A DNA stretch of 64,000 bases. Source: a virus (lineage: Duplodnaviria; Caudoviricetes). Each line of letters begins with the position of its first letter. Position 1 is the first letter of the stretch. The stretch is from positions 64,001 to 128,000 of IMG/VR virus record IMGVR_UViG_3300050142_000050; one strand, given 5' to 3'. The notes under the pieces were generated by a model. It saw only the letters and a list, made by a program, of their open reading frames with translations, was not told the origin of the DNA and searched no databases. The position numbers were made by a program, and so were the translations under genes. Shown here one piece after another: positions 26,260 to 47,373 of the stretch.

Positions 26260-26589
26260 ATGGGTCGATATACCGAGAATCTCCTACGGAGACGAAATAA
26301 GAAATCACGACTCATGAACAAGAAGCCGGAGGTACTACCCTGTGAGGAGTATCTTTCGGCATGTGGAGTCATGATCGATGGGAATCTCTATTCAGGTTAC
26401 CGCACACATCAGGCCCTCATGGAAGCCCATTCTCTGGAGGGAGTCCATGAGCGTGAGAAAGGGTATGTGACATCGACTGGTAGATTCGTCAGTCGGCGTG
26501 AAGCATGTGAAATCGGAATCGACTCTGGTCAAGTACAACCAGGTCCCATCCGAGACATCCTGTCGTGCGATATAACCTGGGTGGATTGA
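26260..26589 (+). CDS. Phage hypothetical protein
   Basis: GYRTH...KGYVTSTGRFVSRREA motif, seen in many phages. Confidence 0.7.
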   Translation: MGRYTENLLRRRNKKSRLMNKKPEVLPCEEYLSACGVMIDGNLYSGYRTHQALMEAHSLEGVHEREKGYVTSTGRFVSRREACEIGIDSGQVQPGPIRDILSCDITWVD

Positions 26590-26634
26590 GGAGAGAACCT
26601 AACCATCATATAGTCCTCCAGTAGGAGTAGTGCG

Positions 26635-26988
26635 ATGGCTAAGGTATCGAATATTTTGAGATCCACGACAGATGGATATGTCTTCTTCTGTCCTGGATGC
26701 AAGAACATGCACCAGGTGCGCGTTAAGGGCACTCCGGCGTGGGGATGGAATGGGAGTCTGGATAAGCCTACTTTCTCTCCTTCCATCCTCATTAGGTCAG
26801 GTCACCATGTACCTGGGCATGAGGGAAGTCAATGTTACTGTACTTGGGATGATAAGGAAGAGTTTCCTGATCTCAAGTGTGGGGTATGTCACTCATATGT
26901 GACGGATGGTAACATTCAGTTCCTCAGCGACTGTACGCATGAGCTTGCGGGGCAGACTGTTCCTATTCCCGATTTACCTGGCGAGTGA
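26635..26988 (+). CDS. DUF6527-like Cys/His metal-binding protein
   Basis: FFCPGC...H, KPTFSPSIL and CHSYVTDGNIQFLSDCTHELAGQTV motifs. Confidence 0.8.
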   Translation: MAKVSNILRSTTDGYVFFCPGCKNMHQVRVKGTPAWGWNGSLDKPTFSPSILIRSGHHVPGHEGSQCYCTWDDKEEFPDLKCGVCHSYVTDGNIQFLSDCTHELAGQTVPIPDLPGE

Positions 26989-32694: not shown

Positions 32695-32709
32695 TATATT
32701 ACCCTTATG
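32695..32709 (+). promoter_or_regulatory. Putative early promoter
   Basis: TATATTAC-CCTT-ATG; exact phiKZ-type octamer. Confidence 0.7.
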
Positions 32710-32758: not shown

Positions 32759-33385
32759 ATGCGAAAAACTAAAAGACTATCGCTACGAGAAAAGACACTC
32801 GAAGATCTCACCGTCAGACTCGACGTAGTCGGTATGGTGGCAGGCCATGCCCGACTGAAACCTTTGGTAAAACTGCACAAGAAAATGATCCATGGGAGTA
32901 AGATCTCCTCCTCCCGCTATATCAAATTCTTAATCAAATGCGCAGACCATGTATTGGTGACGACCTATATCGGAATGGAAAATTCTGATGTGTGGGAGAA
33001 CAGTCTACCTTCAACCTCTTTCGAACAGCACGAGAATAGTGCTGTGAAACTAACGGGTCTCATCGATTCCCTCATCAGTGTATATTCGATCGAGGATCGG
33101 ACGATCTTAGATCTGCACAGAGTCAGCGGTAGGATAAAGACCTGCCTGCTCAGGATGCCCTCTCCCATGGCGGGTAATTATCTCGAGCTCAAAATCCTCT
33201 CCGCATTCGATGACATCTACATGGCCTTTGACGAATTGTTTGAAAGACCATGGGGCTCTAGGTTAGAGCATGAGGACATCCACCCCATCCTTTTGAAGAT
33301 GATAATCCTTATCAGGAAATTGAGATACCGGATCGCAGATAGCTACGGTATATTTCCTTCTACTCTCGGAGCATTCGATGAATAA
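32759..33385 (+). CDS. Hypothetical protein
   Basis: AGGAG RBS; 208 aa. Confidence 0.7.
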   Translation: MRKTKRLSLREKTLEDLTVRLDVVGMVAGHARLKPLVKLHKKMIHGSKISSSRYIKFLIKCADHVLVTTYIGMENSDVWENSLPSTSFEQHENSAVKLTGLIDSLISVYSIEDRTILDLHRVSGRIKTCLLRMPSPMAGNYLELKILSAFDDIYMAFDELFERPWGSRLEHEDIHPILLKMIILIRKLRYRIADSYGIFPSTLGAFDE

Positions 33386-34145
33386 TCCCGATCAAATCCA
33401 GACACCGAGCAATACCCGAATCGAGGTACCCCAGGAAGAAATCGATACCATCCTGGCAGCGGTGAACAAGATCATCTCCAATGATCGCAAGAATGATCCG
33501 ATCTATCCCATCTTCTGTGCAGTCGAATCGATGGTCGGTGATCGCAAGTTCGACAACATGCGTCATCGATCCTACACGTATTTCGTGTACTTCACAGAAG
33601 CCTACCGTCAGTATGTGTCGGCTCTCTACAGCACCGACAGTAAGATCCCTGTTAATGATGCCCGTGTCTACGGTGCGGCGCTCTGCGCGGTGTTTGAGCT
33701 GATGTCCCAACTGGTCAAACGACCGGTGGTCGGTTACATGGCCGACCTGGCTGCAACCAACATCCTCTCGACGATCGATATCATGCGATCCAGCCGACCA
33801 GCCATGGACGGTATGCTCGTCGAGTATGCAGTCGCCAAGATCACCACAGTGATGGGCAGTGTACCCACCTATCGTACAGTACCCAAGCATACGGGCCATG
33901 CTAACAACGAGGCTATGCGCTCTCTGTTCTTCATGTGGCTCGCTCAGTCGACCCTCCATGTGATCCAGTACCTCAACGAGGGTAACCTGGACTACTTCCT
34001 CGGTACGGTCAACAACCCGACTTACGATTCGGTGATTCGTCAGATCCGAGGGCATGCCCGCGCGATCGATGTATCGGCTGTATCACATGACAATCACAGT
34101 CATTCACATCGCGGCAACCGCCGCCAGCGTCGCGCTCGGCGATAA
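33378..34145 (+). CDS. Hypothetical helical protein with an Arg/His-rich tail
   Basis: Overlaps the previous stop; C-terminus HDNHSHSHRGNRRQRRARR. Confidence 0.8.
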   Translation: MNNPDQIQTPSNTRIEVPQEEIDTILAAVNKIISNDRKNDPIYPIFCAVESMVGDRKFDNMRHRSYTYFVYFTEAYRQYVSALYSTDSKIPVNDARVYGAALCAVFELMSQLVKRPVVGYMADLAATNILSTIDIMRSSRPAMDGMLVEYAVAKITTVMGSVPTYRTVPKHTGHANNEAMRSLFFMWLAQSTLHVIQYLNEGNLDYFLGTVNNPTYDSVIRQIRGHARAIDVSAVSHDNHSHSHRGNRRQRRARR

Positions 34146-34158
34146 ATTGACAAAGGAG

Positions 34159-34186
34159 AGGTAGGAGGGCTCGCGCCCTCCTACCT
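34159..34186 (+). terminator. Terminator hairpin
   Basis: AGGTAGGAGGGC-TCGC-GCCCTCCTACCT. Confidence 0.8.
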
Positions 34187-34211
34187 ACTCTATTCAAAAC
34201 CTATAAAACCT

Positions 34212-34226
34212 CATATTACCAAAGTG
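34212..34226 (+). promoter_or_regulatory. Putative early promoter
   Basis: CATATTAC-CAAA-GTG, upstream of 34365. Confidence 0.65.
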
Positions 34227-34364
34227 TAGACTAACATCTCGATTAAAACTTTAACACTCACCGATGAGAATCGTGTGTAGTTCTTAACTCTCCAGTAAAT
34301 GGATTTGAAGAGAGATAAGGACTATCCACGGATCTTCTCTAGGTAAAACCTGAAGGAGTTCCCC

Positions 34365-36129: not shown

Positions 36130-37629
36130 GTGATCAATCATCATTGGCTTTTCGAGAAGACCACTGAACCCAAGCGCATCTTCGTGCTCCATTCGGGCGG
36201 ACTCGACTCGACCTACATGGTCACCAAGCTCATCGCCGCCGGGCACTTCGTGACAACCGGATATGTCGTGATCGAGAACAACTACACGAAGGTCGAGCGC
36301 GAGAGGAAAGCCATCTCGCATCTGACTACCTTGTTTTACAAATATGCCGAAGAGCACCGCCCGAAGAACGTATTCCACACCGAGTGCGACCTTCTCACAT
36401 ATCGGGTGAAGGGAGAGTGGAATAAAGCACTCGGCTACAAACAGCTACCAGGATTCCTTCTCGGACTACTGGCATCGGTGGATACCCAGCGGTTCGACAT
36501 CGTCGCTATGGGCTATGCACTGGGTGATCAGATGATCTCACACATCAGTGACATCGAGTCGATCTGGAGCGCTTTCGAAGGGGTATGCGTCAGCCCGCTT
36601 CCCAAGCTCGAGTTCCCTCTGAAGACCTTCGCCAAAGCGCATATGGTCGACAACCTCCCGGATGAAGTGTTGGCTCGCATCACGTGGTGTGAATCCGAAG
36701 GTCAGTATGACTTCTGTGGAGTATGCGGCGCATGCGAACGAGCTAAAGCTGACCGCGTGTATATACCGATTAGGCGTCTACGTGATGAGGTCGCCGACGA
36801 GCCCGAAGTAGCCTCCGCTGAGAATGTTAAACTGGAGGCGGCCACCAAATCGGAGATCGATGACAGAAAGGAGTCCGAAGTCACCACTGCCCGTGACGAA
36901 GAATCCGAAATATGGTCCGTATTGGAGCCCGATCTCGATGAAGATCCCCGCCCAGTCGACTCCGAAGATCGTACACTCCTTGATGATCAGGATGACGTGA
37001 TTGTAAGAGAAGAATCACCTCCGGTCGTCGAGGGCGACATTATCATCGAAGAGCGAACTGGGTTCGAAAAATGGTGTACCAACGTCCTCGAACGACGTCT
37101 ACCCGAACCCTCAGATATCGCTGCATCGAAATCTCGTATCAGACTACAAGACGTACGGTCGGTGCGTCAGCATATTACCGAGACTCTTTCTTCACGCTGT
37201 TATACTAAGACGACGGACGAGCTCGTCGGACATTTCTTCGGTATACTACAAAGTGAAGATTTCGTGGTGGATGCCCCAGTTATCGTACAGGCAGACGATT
37301 TCTATTACACCTATAAGTCATTGAATGCGTTCATTGGCTCCCTCTTACAGGGAGATAAGGAAGTCCTCCATATCAAGTTGACAGAATCTGGATATTCGTG
37401 TCTGCATTTCGATTTCGACACGAAAGAAAAGCTCTTTGAGTTCCTCGAAGCCACCACCATCGATCGAGATTCCGTGTTTGTTAAACTCTCCAGTAGGTAT
37501 GGTTGGGGGTCTTCCTATAGGAATCTCAACGAGTTTCTTGCAGCCCATTCGGTAGAGAAGGGTAAGGAATTCCCCATCGCCAGCATTACCTCCGAGTCGG
37601 AAGGTCAGGTGAACCATGAAAGTCGGTGA
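36130..37629 (+). CDS. QueC-like PP-loop ATPase fused to an acidic linker and an unknown C-terminal domain
   Basis: HSGGLDST PP-loop; TWCES...CGVCGAC zinc motif at about aa 190-205. Confidence 0.75.
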   Translation: MINHHWLFEKTTEPKRIFVLHSGGLDSTYMVTKLIAAGHFVTTGYVVIENNYTKVERERKAISHLTTLFYKYAEEHRPKNVFHTECDLLTYRVKGEWNKALGYKQLPGFLLGLLASVDTQRFDIVAMGYALGDQMISHISDIESIWSAFEGVCVSPLPKLEFPLKTFAKAHMVDNLPDEVLARITWCESEGQYDFCGVCGACERAKADRVYIPIRRLRDEVADEPEVASAENVKLEAATKSEIDDRKESEVTTARDEESEIWSVLEPDLDEDPRPVDSEDRTLLDDQDDVIVREESPPVVEGDIIIEERTGFEKWCTNVLERRLPEPSDIAASKSRIRLQDVRSVRQHITETLSSRCYTKTTDELVGHFFGILQSEDFVVDAPVIVQADDFYYTYKSLNAFIGSLLQGDKEVLHIKLTESGYSCLHFDFDTKEKLFEFLEATTIDRDSVFVKLSSRYGWGSSYRNLNEFLAAHSVEKGKEFPIASITSESEGQVNHESR

Positions 37630-38272
37630 TGATAACATCCGCGCACAGGACGTCGGACTGATTGTTTCCCACCTTAGAGAACACTACGAGGGTTGGGTGT
37701 GGTCTATCGGTATATCCGATGAGGGTATCGAGGTGATGATTGCACCTGATGAAACTACACCCAGTGCGGTGGCCAGAATCTTTGCTCGTCATAAAGACGG
37801 ACAAGATGAATTCCGTCACCTATTCCAGCACCGAGCTGTGAACCACACCACTCTGGGTATGTTTGGACTTAATGTGCAGAACGCACTAGAGTCTTTTCTC
37901 GATAACACAAATTTGGTGTATTCTGACATCATCCCTCTGGAGCCAAATGGTCCAGATGGAGACTTTCTGTACGCCAAAATTATAGATGAGCATCAAATTC
38001 CGATGACCGTGGAACGCGCTCTGGCCAATATCCAAATCATCCAGGAGACTACCGAAGGTCTTGAGATCGAAAGACTCTACTTCGGTCAATGCTATCGCTC
38101 ATGCGATGCGTCCATCTACTGGAAGCATCCTGAGTTCGGTGAGGGAGGTTTTGACTGTGATATCAGATCACTCTCAGTATCGGGACCCCTCAAGGAGGTA
38201 ACGACCCTCCTTACTCTTGCATCACGGTGTCCTGAGGTTTTCGAGACGAACAGCTATTCTCATAAAAAATGA
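37616..38272 (+). CDS. Hypothetical protein
   Basis: Overlaps the previous stop; 218 aa. Confidence 0.7.
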   Translation: MKVGDDNIRAQDVGLIVSHLREHYEGWVWSIGISDEGIEVMIAPDETTPSAVARIFARHKDGQDEFRHLFQHRAVNHTTLGMFGLNVQNALESFLDNTNLVYSDIIPLEPNGPDGDFLYAKIIDEHQIPMTVERALANIQIIQETTEGLEIERLYFGQCYRSCDASIYWKHPEFGEGGFDCDIRSLSVSGPLKEVTTLLTLASRCPEVFETNSYSHKK

Positions 38273-38277
38273 AATCC

Positions 38278-38292
38278 CATATCACTCTTATG
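38278..38292 (+). promoter_or_regulatory. Putative early promoter for the RNA locus
   Basis: CATATCAC-TCTT-ATG, with no downstream protein gene. Confidence 0.6.
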
Positions 38293-38344
38293 AATAAATC
38301 GGGATGTCCGACATTGAAAAAATGTTAGTCTGAACGAACCTTAT

Positions 38345-38820
38345 TCTGTTGGAAGAGAGTCATCGATCATACCCCCTCTCTCAGAGCCGACCCCACCTCG
38401 GCGATCGGTGATTTCTCTTCCAACCTATTTGACAACCATGGACCATCCCTCCCGAAGGTCAGACCCGTCCCTCGAGGTCCATGGTTGTCAAATGGATATT
38501 CCAGTTTCACAAAGCAGTGCGGTAACGCACTCGCCCTTTTGTGGTCGCAGTCAGGACAACGATCCTGACTAGAGGGTAACCAGAGGTCGTGAGCTCCACT
38601 CGACTACTTGACATGTACACGACCCCCATGTCAGGTGGAAGAATCTTAACGACCTCTGGTTATTCTATACGAGATTCGCACGACGGCTGATGTAACCACC
38701 GGCGGTTGGGCGAAAGCTCGGTACTCGAATGATTCCTCCTGCATGTCGGCTTAGGACACTGCATGTGGGGGTTGTTCCCTCTTCCTCCTTGGAGGGTAGA
38801 GTCGATCGAGTACCGAGTAC
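38345..38820 (+). ncRNA. Candidate structured ncRNA(s): tandem long hairpins with C-rich loops
   Basis: Stems 38348-38358/38414-38424, 38428-38444/38476-38492 (17 bp perfect), 38577-38590/38649-38662 and 38717-38728/38806-38817. No ORF. Confidence 0.6.
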
Positions 38821-38828
38821 TTATTACT

Positions 38829-38904
<76 letters not shown>

Positions 38905-38909
38905 CAGAT

Positions 38910-39322
38910 TCGGTCTGAGGAGACGCGCCTCTCATCGAGTAGTCGCTGTATATGACACTACTCGCAACAGTGATCAGCAGCTGTAGAAGTCACACCCTCA
39001 CGGTGGTCGAATCTTAGACGTGAGATTCGATAAGAGCTTCAGCTACAACCCCATGGAAACCAGTAGGGCCGCTACTGCGGTGATCGTGTCGGTACGGTAA
39101 CGATGATATAAGTCGCGTCTCTTGTCGCCAGTGCGTAATGTCGCTCTGGCGGAGTCGTGCATCATACGACCCTCCGATAATCTGGATTTCCATGGGGATC
39201 CTATTCCCTACCATTTGATGGATAGACGTAGGGGTGTACCTTATTAACCATCTAGGTCTTCCTGCTCACCGGGGTGATACCGAAAATAAGTCGATCGGTT
39301 TATCCGGTCGATTAGGGTGAGC
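38910..39322 (+). ncRNA. Candidate multi-branched structured ncRNA
   Basis: CCCCATGGAAA/TTTCCATGGGG closing stem enclosing several hairpins, plus TCGAATCT/AGATTCGA, CGAGTAGT/ACTACTCG and CTCACC/GGTGAG stems. Confidence 0.5.
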
Positions 39323-39351
39323 CATTTTTGAGTCTAGTGCAGGAGAAGGTT

Positions 39352-39729
39352 ATGGCCGATATCAAACTGACAGACTCCGCAGAAGCTAAACGCGAGCTGC
39401 GAAACAAGAAAACCTATGAGCTCTTCAAGAAGCTGGTCAATATGTCAGCTTCACAGATCGAGAAATTCCTCGAGACTGATGAGAGTAAGAAGGTAGGCTT
39501 CAAGAAGGAAGGTAGTGATGAGTCAGTAGGACATCAGTCTGGACGACGTATCATCAAGATCCTACGTACACCTAAGTCACAGCTCGATGAGAGTGACTAT
39601 GCCCACATGCGTAAGGTATGTGCATACATCACACGCCATCTGGCTCAAGGTGGTCCTGAGACAAAAAAGGAAACGAGCCGCTGGCGCTATTCCTTGATGA
39701 ACTGGGGACATGATCCCCTCAGGAAATAA
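39352..39729 (+). CDS. DUF3140-family protein
   Basis: VNMSAS.IEKFLETDESKKVG...ESVGHQSGRRII.IL...DYAHMRKV..YITRHLAQ...WRYSLMNWGHDP. Confidence 0.85.
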   Translation: MADIKLTDSAEAKRELRNKKTYELFKKLVNMSASQIEKFLETDESKKVGFKKEGSDESVGHQSGRRIIKILRTPKSQLDESDYAHMRKVCAYITRHLAQGGPETKKETSRWRYSLMNWGHDPLRK

Positions 39730-39737
39730 ACGAATAT

Positions 39738-39825
39738 GGAGGGTACTGAGGTTGGCTCCTCACACGGATTTGAAACCCGTAGGTGCGTTAATTCGCGGAT
39801 GGTTCGATGCCATTGCCCTCCGCCA
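39738..39825 (+). tRNA. tRNA-Ser(UGA), atypical
   Basis: 88 nt; GGAGGGT/GCCCTCC acceptor, G discriminator + CCA, TTTGAAA anticodon loop, long variable arm, GGTTCGATGCC T-arm. Lacks U8/A14. Confidence 0.8.
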
Positions 39826-45565: not shown

Positions 45566-47373
45566 CCTGATGTTCAGCAGTGCTCGTTAGACACTACCCG
45601 TCCTTTCTTCCTTAGGAAAAGAGGACTGCTTACACTCTCGTGTAAGAGCAGACTATATCTTCACCCTCTCGTTGGAGTAGGGTGCTCCCCATTTCGGGAT
45701 CACTCGATCCCTACACCGTGGCAGGTGGTTAGTCGTTGAGCACATCGCATGACCTATAGAGGCTTTAGCGACTTCGCTGCGGATTTTCTCTATCTCTGTA
45801 ATTTTTACCATCTCGATGTGATTAGCATCGCCCCTCACTATCTAGTTTCCTAGGTGGGTTGGTATACAGAGCCTAACGAGACGTTCCCGCAATTAGAGGA
45901 GATTCACTTTACCATCTCTGATAAAGAGGACATCGCTTATTGCATAAAACACGACTTTACTTCAATGACAGGAAACTTCTTTAGGTCCACATGCTGGATA
46001 TTCCAACTCCTCCAGCGCATGGTACCATCACTCGACTTAAGCATCCGGGACATTACCGCCGGATCACAACGCTTCTCTCGATCCTCATTACACCACTCCG
46101 TCACACTGGTGTAATATCTCACTACTCCATCGCCCCCTACGATATTCAGAGGACGATCCGTCGCCTTAGTCCGATCGAAGATATCTAAGACCTCCTCAGG
46201 ATATACAGGCCACTTCACGAGCTCGCCTTCTTCTGCGAGGCGGAAACCCATACCCTTCCAAGGTATGACTGTCTCATACATCAACAGACGATCGAGCACA
46301 TAGTGACGCATCCCATACTTCACCGCTACCTCAGAGCGATTCCCCATGGCGAGCACTCGATGGGTCTTGAGATCCATCACCACGATTGACTTATCGGCCT
46401 TATCGCCGATACGACTCGGATTACGAGACAACTCCTCCCAACTGCGCGGATCATCAGCCTTCTTAAAGATATACCCATGGAAAGGCTTCCCATCAGTAGT
46501 CCTCCGCTCCACCGCCTGGTGAGCACTTTGAGGAGACACACCGAGGAGCCTCGCCATCTCATGGTATCCACCCACCACGAACTCCTGCCCATCACTCAGC
46601 CTCCTGAGGAGTATCTTCTTCTGAGTCTCACCCCGCACACCATCAGTGAAGGCATGCATGTTGTTATCAGAGTAAGTAGCCCACTCGAGATTTCGGATGG
46701 TGTTATTGAGCTTATTGGAGTCCTTATGGTTGACCGTAAGATGTTCAGTGTCCAGAGGATGATCCAAGAAGGTGAGAGCCAACAGTCGATGGAGACGTTG
46801 TTGCTTACCATCGATTTTAACAGTAGTCTCCATATATCCGTTTCTCGGAGAGACACCGACGGGATACTTGTCGACGTACCGTCGCAACTCAGGACCACGT
46901 TCTACAATCCTTATTTCCAAGGACACCCCAGGTACCTTGAACCACACTCCCAGTGGGATGTGTTCTCCTATCCTCTCACGGACTCTATACTGACGATAAT
47001 CCCATTCGAGATTTTCTATCCGGAGATCATCACGATTCCCATTTCGGAAAGACACCGACAACCACTCAGGATCCTTGTCGGTCGGCTTATACGTTATCAG
47101 CATCAGCCTATCGAGCGGGTGCGAAGAAGGCTTGTGACTTTTACCACGGATCTTAACTGCACGTCGACAGTGTCGACTGATGTATTCTTTCTGAACCTCT
47201 CCGGTAGATATCAGCGTGACGACTGCATCTTCGGAGATGTCATATAGAGGATTTGTTGGAATTCTCATAATTCACCTAGTTGTTATTTCACCATATAATA
47301 CTAGGTAAAATTTTCACACCTTTTTACAAGGGTATTTTCCTGTCAATTATCGTGTTCTATGCACTAAGGTCAA
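45566..47373 (-). mobile_element. Group I intron (about 1808 nt) with an HNH ORF
   Basis: Minus-strand core: P AATTGCGGGAA (45884-45894), Q AATCCGCAGC (45776-45785), R GCTCAACGACTA (45730-45741), S AAGATATAGTCT (45650-45661). 5' exon ends in U; intron ends in G. Confidence 0.92.
45937..47268 (-). CDS. Intron-encoded HNH homing endonuclease
   Basis: LHRLLALTFL...VNHKDSNKLNNTIRNLEWATYSDN motif, a degenerate upstream copy, and C-terminal NUMOD-like segments. Confidence 0.92.
   Translation of the reverse strand: MRIPTNPLYDISEDAVVTLISTGEVQKEYISRHCRRAVKIRGKSHKPSSHPLDRLMLITYKPTDKDPEWLSVSFRNGNRDDLRIENLEWDYRQYRVRERIGEHIPLGVWFKVPGVSLEIRIVERGPELRRYVDKYPVGVSPRNGYMETTVKIDGKQQRLHRLLALTFLDHPLDTEHLTVNHKDSNKLNNTIRNLEWATYSDNNMHAFTDGVRGETQKKILLRRLSDGQEFVVGGYHEMARLLGVSPQSAHQAVERRTTDGKPFHGYIFKKADDPRSWEELSRNPSRIGDKADKSIVVMDLKTHRVLAMGNRSEVAVKYGMRHYVLDRLLMYETVIPWKGMGFRLAEEGELVKWPVYPEEVLDIFDRTKATDRPLNIVGGDGVVRYYTSVTEWCNEDREKRCDPAVMSRMLKSSDGTMRWRSWNIQHVDLKKFPVIEVKSCFMQ

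Follow-up and report, generated by a model that had tools for sequence, protein, structure and literature searches.

A chain of predicted stem-closed RNA modules between tRNA-Thr and a DUF3140 gene in a phiKZ-like giant phage

Results

The locus described here lies in the genome of an uncultured phiKZ-like giant phage (~250 kb) from leaf-litter metagenomes, which carries split multisubunit RNA polymerase genes. Coordinates refer to the window, the 64,000-nt stretch of DNA that was analysed, which corresponds to bases 64001-128000 of a 249,638-bp IMG/VR virus record (IMGVR_UViG_3300050142_000050). A gene-free region at 38273-39327, the second-largest such gap in the genome by crude gene calling, houses tRNA-Thr(UGU), the sole tRNA called by ARAGORN across the whole genome (Table 1). 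This gene sets the strand of the stretch under study, 38905-39325, and bounds it upstream; the stretch extends almost to a DUF3140 gene. The + strand carries the flanking genes as well as the two tRNA-type genes; the RNA polymerase beta gene converges from the - strand and ends with canonical terminators at 40686-40656 and 40328-40303. The promoter-like box at 38279 has a single look-alike, at window position 32696, ahead of a gene at window position 32759. No promoter-like box was found between tRNA-Thr and DUF3140 (38905-39351), and with the DUF3140 start 22 nt past a U-run at 39325-39329, itself about 12-13 nt from the ribosome-binding site, a promoter of the gene's own would not fit. A different intergenic box, TCAC-N-N-TGGTAATATGA, occurs in 6-8 copies, all on the - strand (e.g. 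window positions 90036, 125854, 142219 and 154784), and looks like a phage promoter class.

Table 1. Features of the gene-free region and its surroundings (window coordinates).
Feature	Position	Strand	Details
ORF	37616-38272	+	First upstream in the local gene order
Promoter-like box ATATCACTCTTATGAATAAA	38279-38298	+	Upstream of the entire gene-free region; context only
Hairpin array	38337-38817	+	Between promoter-like box and tRNA-Thr
tRNA-Thr(UGU), encoded CCA	38829-38904	+	ARAGORN; Rfam tRNA 69.6 bits
Spacer with a single modest hairpin	38905-39005	+	Three pieces, z -0.06, -2.0 and -0.5
11-bp hairpin	39006-39031	+	-13.5 kcal/mol; z -4.71; 0/200 shuffles; P 1.0
Stem-closed domain E	39049-39197	+	149 nt; P1 + P2 + P3; domain z -5.04
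Linker, no significant structure	39198-39263	+	39203-39240, z 0.03
Y-shaped terminal module	39264-39329	+	-27.5 kcal/mol; z -4.34; P 0.97-1.0
Shine-Dalgarno GGAGAAGG	39342-39349	+	By sequence; ahead of DUF3140 gene
DUF3140 gene	39352-39729	+	Pfam PF11338, E 8e-36
Type-II tRNA-like element, anticodon UGA (Ser)	39737-39822	+	7 nt past the DUF3140 stop

The tRNA-Thr at this locus has no enclosing helix of its own. All 76 nt of it are matched with 100% identity on two bacterial-looking JGI metagenome contigs (L034:236-311 and L035:977-1052), in which the flanks of the tRNA are unrelated, and this identity suggests that the gene was captured recently from an uncultured host lineage; no exact copy was found among 185,579 species genomes. 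The closest bacterial relatives of the DUF3140 protein are from Sphingomonas and Methylobacterium (59-66%). The serine-type element beyond DUF3140 was missed by ARAGORN, contains several non-standard pairs and reaches 45.4 bits against the tRNA-Sec model (cut-off 47). In the closest relative, a contig of ENA assembly ERZ27249320 (L029) whose DUF3140 is 83% identical at the nucleotide level, there is likewise a tRNA-Ser(UGA)-like sequence, which has a canonical T-arm, begins ~90 nt past the DUF3140 gene and cannot be aligned with that at 39737-39822.

The stretch is non-coding, as the initial annotation had supposed. It contains only ORFs of 40-66 aa, none of which matches a Pfam or PHROG family, and the idea of a hidden gene was rejected on these grounds. 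A cmscan search with all 4227 Rfam families, at the gathering threshold and at E<=10, returned no family: tRNA, tmRNA, RNase P, SRP and 6S RNAs, group I and II introns, riboswitches, GOLLD and ROOL are all absent from the matches, which extends the earlier failure to recognise a tmRNA, RNase P RNA, SRP RNA or group I core. Domain E contains neither a tRNA-type T-arm nor any other tRNA feature, there being no tRNA-model match in 38905-39325 at E<=10.

Folding of the whole 421 nt is better than that of shuffled controls and is better on the tRNA strand, with a free energy of -158.6 kcal/mol and a z-score of -4.22 on the + strand vs -2.89 on the - strand (a difference of 18.5 kcal/mol in favour of the + strand). 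The initial annotation had drawn from this region a single multi-branched RNA of about 400 nt. That picture gives way to three local modules with unremarkable spacers between them: the centroid lacks the long-range pairs seen in the 421-nt minimum-energy fold, and three sub-stretches (38905-38936, 38966-39006 and 39203-39240) fold no better than shuffles. When a 1080-nt context is folded, the closing helix of domain E acquires a competitor, a 9-10-bp helix between 38918-27 and 39114-23, which we dropped as a candidate since ~0.4 such occurrences are expected by chance. Because the long-range pairs are lost from the centroid, the signal is local, the spacers are unremarkable and the closing helix competes with a chance-level helix in the longer context, our modelling favours a chain of separately folding modules rather than a single RNA fold.

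The most prominent of these modules, domain E, is sealed by helix P1, in which CCCCATGGAAA-CCAG (39049-39063) pairs with CTGG-A-TTTCCATGGGG (39182-39197), and which bears out the closing helix originally proposed. P1 comprises 15 bp (11 bp, the bulged A39186, then 4 bp) with no extension possible, and its pair probability is 0.95-1.0 both for the isolated domain and when folding starts at the tRNA. The domain with its immediate borders (39045-39201) folds at -69.3 kcal/mol, and none of 200 shuffles was as good. Its favoured fold is predicted to be a three-way junction of P1, a P2 hairpin (39068-39081) and P3, a single long irregular arm (39087-39179) capped by a hairpin at 39126-39151. The inner hairpins that had been drawn fared unevenly: CGCCAG/CTGGCG (39126-31/39146-51) is formed with P 0.95, whereas GTAG/CTAC, ATCGT/ACGAT, GGAG/CTCC and TCGT/ACGA have P 0-0.15, two of these disfavoured hairpins reusing bases of neighbouring helices. 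Taken together, the drawn five-way fold reaches -37 kcal/mol against -69 for the minimum-energy fold and is thus 32 kcal/mol worse. The signal of the domain comes mostly from its closing helix, because the 118-nt folded interior that P1 encloses has a z-score of -2.2 alone; 150-nt windows that cut P1 have unremarkable fold scores. Both strands of domain E fold alike (z -5.04 on the + strand vs -4.97 on the - strand), and in a genome-wide scan of 160-nt windows the one at 39041 ranks ~23rd of 6238.

Two of the three flanking stems of the earlier drawing also hold. TCGAATCT/AGATTCGA forms the hairpin at 39006-39031 (z -4.7), which has two terminal G-U pairs on the + strand, and CTCACC/GGTGAG belongs to the terminal module (39264-39322, z -4.3). 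The third, CGAGTAGT/ACTACTCG, proved modest (z -2.0) and unstable in the ensemble; the hairpin of the first spacer is an 8-bp stem (38936-38943/38957-38964) with P 0.09 in the ensemble of 38905-39352. The terminal module is Y-shaped, with an outer 7-bp stem (39264-39270/39316-39322), an inner 10-bp hairpin (39289-39313) and, on its 3' side, CA followed by five U (39325-39329). Its outer stem encloses 45 nt, and because of this large loop a terminator scan makes no call here, though it does call canonical terminators nearby. The module may act as a weak terminator or may stabilise the DUF3140 message at its 5' end.

Long perfect helices are concentrated in this one gap. Perfect inverted repeats of >=10 bp with a 30-400-nt loop number 111 in the genome, but only 7 of these are both >=11 bp and fully intergenic, and five of the 7 are consecutive within 38348-39197, P1 being one. 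The hairpin array upstream of tRNA-Thr contains perfect long-range helices of 18, 14, 12 and 11 bp, and its 150-nt windows score z -6.6 to -8.5, far stronger than the stretch studied here. A pairing of the DUF3140 ribosome-binding site with 38337-38347 was considered and dropped, as it was no better than 15% of shuffles. The genome has three other large gaps lacking genes (33111-34363, 136506-137361 and 26301-26957 in coordinates of the whole genome, G000); in two of these, perfect inverted repeats of 11 bp span 325-396 nt, and these two may host other structured RNAs.

Sequence searches returned no homolog of the stretch. In a blastn search against 50,697 phage records the tRNA was matched and the rest of the stretch was not, and the phage's own genome holds no paralog of it. 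Scans of IMG/VR with the 218-aa, 499-aa, DUF3140 and RNA polymerase beta proteins, and with an RNA polymerase beta alignment, led only to one distant relative, G001; by blastn, nhmmer and a whole-record search, similarity to G001 was confined to DUF3140. A single-sequence covariance model of domain E (R1), run over 15 loci, G000 and G001, matched only itself. The exact pattern of the P1 arms had no match in JGI metagenomes, and pattern scans with tRNA-Thr retrieved unrelated phage or bacterial contigs only. The contig of the closest relative is 556 nt long and starts 14 nt before its DUF3140 gene, and so offers no ortholog of the stretch. The locus occurs in 24 metagenome sequencing runs, all as DNA contigs of one clone, and its sequence is identical in all four runs compared, so that there are no natural variants to draw on; with no homolog found, there is likewise no covariation for any of the helices.

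What does recur in related phages is architecture, not sequence. The RNA polymerase beta protein has ~38 relatives at 54-68% identity. In the five that we fetched (60-68% identical) the syntenic place is taken by ordinary small genes and the RNA locus is lacking; the locus therefore occupies a variable spot in the genome. In the distant relative G001 (307,821 bp; RNA polymerase beta 48% identical overall and 59% in the C-terminal third), four modules of 144-219 nt, none with a tRNA inside, are interspersed in a tRNA cluster; each has two to five inner hairpins, a sealing helix mostly of 22-30 bp and a z-score of -5.9 to -11. Two of these modules share their arms and have unrelated interiors; most mismatches in the arms are G-U when read on the tRNA strand, and this speaks for RNA-level selection. 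Also in G001, tRNA-Asn is wrapped by a 20-bp and tRNA-Leu by a 17-bp leader-trailer helix. At the head of the tRNA cluster of G001 ARAGORN predicts a permuted tmRNA with a 27-residue tag (L012:4325-4775, - strand), adjoining two paralogous stem-sealed modules.

A second phage, phage B (L030-L032), has a DUF3140 protein 68% identical to that here; ~5 kb further downstream, and as here on the opposite strand, lies its gene for RNA polymerase beta. Its large gene-free stretches contain tRNA-Met and a pair of tRNA look-alikes, together with modules whose arms are 20-25 nt long; one module directly follows tRNA-Met and one wraps a tRNA look-alike. The wrapping helices of both phages (L012:3396-3498 and L014:1799-1944, both on the - strand, for the tRNAs, and L030:3819-3928 for the look-alike) are leader-trailer helices of 17-24 bp, which lengthen the acceptor stem and score z -4.9 to -6.6; the arrangement is familiar from rRNA and RNase III, and such a helix would block RNase P until it is cut. 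The modules of G001 and phage B show no likeness to domain E by sequence or by covariance model. The search for homologs proposed by the initial annotation thus yielded no homologous sequence but did yield a like architecture in two related phages. No structured leader is shared with the DUF3140 genes of G001 and of a further contig, L033, which have only a short gap upstream (in G001 a small possible ORF and a short hairpin); phage B has ~1 kb without called genes before DUF3140, with a canonical terminator separating that stretch from the gene.

Discussion

Ever since work on T4 in the 1970s, structured RNAs have been known to lie next to tRNA genes of phages, and they still await an explanation. 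The stretch described here is an orphan case of this known but unexplained kind, a structured small RNA inside a phage tRNA operon. As an orphan, it is by itself of modest weight. Its interest lies in adding a phiKZ-like giant phage to the cases of RNAs beside tRNA genes, and in the comparison with its relatives: in this clade the recurring trait is a long sealing helix with a folded interior, set among tRNA genes.

The stretch is non-coding and lies on the tRNA strand, its folds are significant, and its architecture recurs in two related phages. We tentatively favour a reading in which the chain of modules is co-transcribed with tRNA-Thr and cut by host RNases, with domain E persisting as a processed, stable module; transcription, cutting and stability are here inferred. 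On this reading the stretch would be the downstream part of a + strand phage RNA operon comprising, in order, the box near 38280, the hairpin array, tRNA-Thr, the stretch itself, DUF3140 and the tRNA-Ser-like RNA. A single transcript from ~38280 through DUF3140 would be the simplest arrangement, because the + strand carries the tRNA, the flanking genes and the better fold, no internal promoter-like box was found, and the DUF3140 ribosome-binding site lies close to the U-run. Host RNase P and RNase E would first cut the precursor beside the tRNA, and further cuts would follow at or beside the long helices. Domain E, whether released by cutting or simply persisting, would then outlast its surroundings as a discrete RNA of ~150 nt, with paired ends that would withstand exonucleases, in the manner in which RNAC and RNAD emerge from the tRNA cluster of phage T4. 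The last module would probably serve as the 5' end of the DUF3140 message or as a partial terminator before the gene.

The first of these steps has a precedent in E. coli-type processing, where a tRNA with an encoded CCA is cut just downstream by RNase E and at its 5' end by RNase P (PMC2190699). By analogy, a cut by RNase E after tRNA-Thr is a plausible way of freeing the 5' side of the stretch, in keeping with the suggestion of the initial annotation that processing of the tRNA 3' end could generate the 5' end of the RNA. For the later steps, the relatives' tRNAs, wrapped in the style of rRNA, point to a processing step on double-stranded RNA, and because they are so wrapped we suggest, again by analogy, that cleavage of double-stranded RNA may be part of the processing route in this clade. 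P1 is, however, short for a classical RNase III site, and no RNase III gene was found in G000 or G001, so the enzyme would have to come from the host. It also counts against the favoured reading that domain E scores alike on its two strands, that most of its signal lies in the closing helix, and that it has no counterpart to the T-arm of T4 RNAC.

The closest parallels to domain E are RNAC (species 1, 139 nt) and RNAD (species 2, 119 nt) of phage T4. These too are non-coding, are ~120-150 nt in size, and immediately follow a tRNA gene on the same strand as the tRNAs, and T4 likewise carries tRNA-Thr and tRNA-Ser. T4 RNAC folds with paired ends (z -4.6), as domain E is predicted to do. There are, however, clear differences: no similarity was detected by sequence or by model; RNAC has a tRNA-type T-arm whereas domain E has no tRNA feature; and the closing helix is much longer than that of T4, being 15 bp here and mostly 22-30 bp in the relatives' modules. 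Furthermore, the T4 species have been demonstrated as RNA, whereas domain E is a prediction. The two T4 RNAs arise by transcription of the tRNA region and their biological role is unknown (PMC3014915). A further parallel is provided by the phiKZ-like giant phage 201phi2-1, in which long-read RNA sequencing revealed an sRNA directly upstream of a tRNA (PMC11512511). There, as in PAK_P3, a small RNA occurs in the context of tRNA transcription, but it lies upstream of the tRNA and arises from premature termination, whereas the stretch here is downstream.

The strongest competitor, which we nevertheless consider unlikely, holds that the helices act in cis only, processing, insulating and stabilising a polycistronic transcript with no trans-acting RNA as product; they would part the tRNA from the DUF3140 message and form a protective 5' end or a leaky terminator. 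Long helices between the units of a polycistronic transcript are familiar from the RNase III stems of the phage T7 early region and of rRNA leader-trailer pairs, and the helices of the related phages enclose genuine tRNAs exactly as rRNA stems enclose rRNA. The pair of related G001 modules, which have their arms but not their interiors in common, speaks for the same view, as does the terminal module with its U-run, followed directly by the DUF3140 ribosome-binding site. At the locus itself the fit is poorer, since a folded interior of 118 nt, which is not a tRNA, is unnecessary for a cut site, and tRNA-Thr is not wrapped in a helix. P1 is also short for the purpose. A classical RNase III site has roughly two turns (~20 bp) of coaxial helix, for which 15 bp with one bulge is borderline, and P1 falls below the 17-30 bp of the relatives' helices.

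It is less probable again that the stretch has no function and is fast-decaying filler at a variable spot, in which inverted repeats are tolerated rather than selected, perhaps left over from tRNA cassettes since lost or from small palindromic mobile DNA. Such a view would account for a locus that is lineage-specific, replaced by ordinary small genes at the syntenic place in five relatives, and for which no conservation at the sequence level was found. The identity of tRNA-Thr with copies on bacterial-looking contigs, suggestive of recent capture, and the equal folding of domain E on both strands would also agree with it. Against this stand the extreme clustering of long perfect helices, with five of the seven in the genome falling in one gap, and the preference for the + strand over the full 421 nt. 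The same architecture, built from unrelated sequences, also recurs in two related phages, where G-U pairs fall on the tRNA strand; the repeated genomic copies expected of a mobile element are missing.

A bolder proposal is that domain E and the unrelated sealed modules of the two related leaf-litter giant phages together form a new class of stable, trans-acting jumbo-phage RNAs, which we regard as somewhat more improbable still. Members of such a class could be freed from tRNA operons when double-stranded RNA is cleaved, could evolve in sequence too fast for homology searches, and could act, for example, as decoys for host defences that target RNA or tRNA.

Two further readings seem to us very improbable. 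In the first, the stretch would be a ligand- or factor-sensing leader, with domain E as the sensor and the terminal module and U-run as the platform controlling DUF3140. The long structured 5' region, ending in a stem and U-run 12 nt before the ribosome-binding site, has the appearance of such a leader, and phage B also has ~1 kb without called genes ahead of DUF3140; but no riboswitch or leader family is matched, no alternative pairing joins P1 to the terminal module, and the ribosome-binding site has no more complementarity than chance would give. Moreover, DUF3140 is preceded by only a short gap in G001 and L033, and in phage B by a canonical terminator that cuts it off from the upstream stretch.

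The second would make the whole gene-free kilobase, with its embedded tRNA, one large ornate RNA that assembles in the manner of GOLLD or ROOL, which are phage RNAs often found near tRNA islands, GOLLD sometimes with a tRNA in a linker (bioRxiv 10.1101/2024.12.08.627333). Like those RNAs, the tRNA-bearing ~1 kb of structured non-coding sequence here is phage-encoded, close to or around a tRNA gene, multi-branched and of unknown function (bioRxiv 10.1101/2024.12.08.627333; PMC5737381), but it matches no Rfam model at E<=10, its folded units are much smaller and local, the one long-range pair across the tRNA is at chance level, and it shows no conservation and no sign of pseudoknots, conserved junctions or a homolog family.

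Other parts of the window provide observations of a different kind. A group I intron at 45629-45968 (- strand, 75 bits) adjoins an HNH endonuclease ORF (45937-47268, - strand), and the pair lies directly upstream of a 1536-aa RNA polymerase beta-like ORF; the RNA polymerase gene is probably split by the intron. The 499-aa protein encoded at 36130-37629 has no Pfam match at E<=0.01, and its N-terminal third carries a PP-loop motif (SGGLDS) and a QueC-like cysteine cluster. In one relative (L022), a 209-aa protein encoded a few genes downstream of RNA polymerase beta has a faint QueC match.
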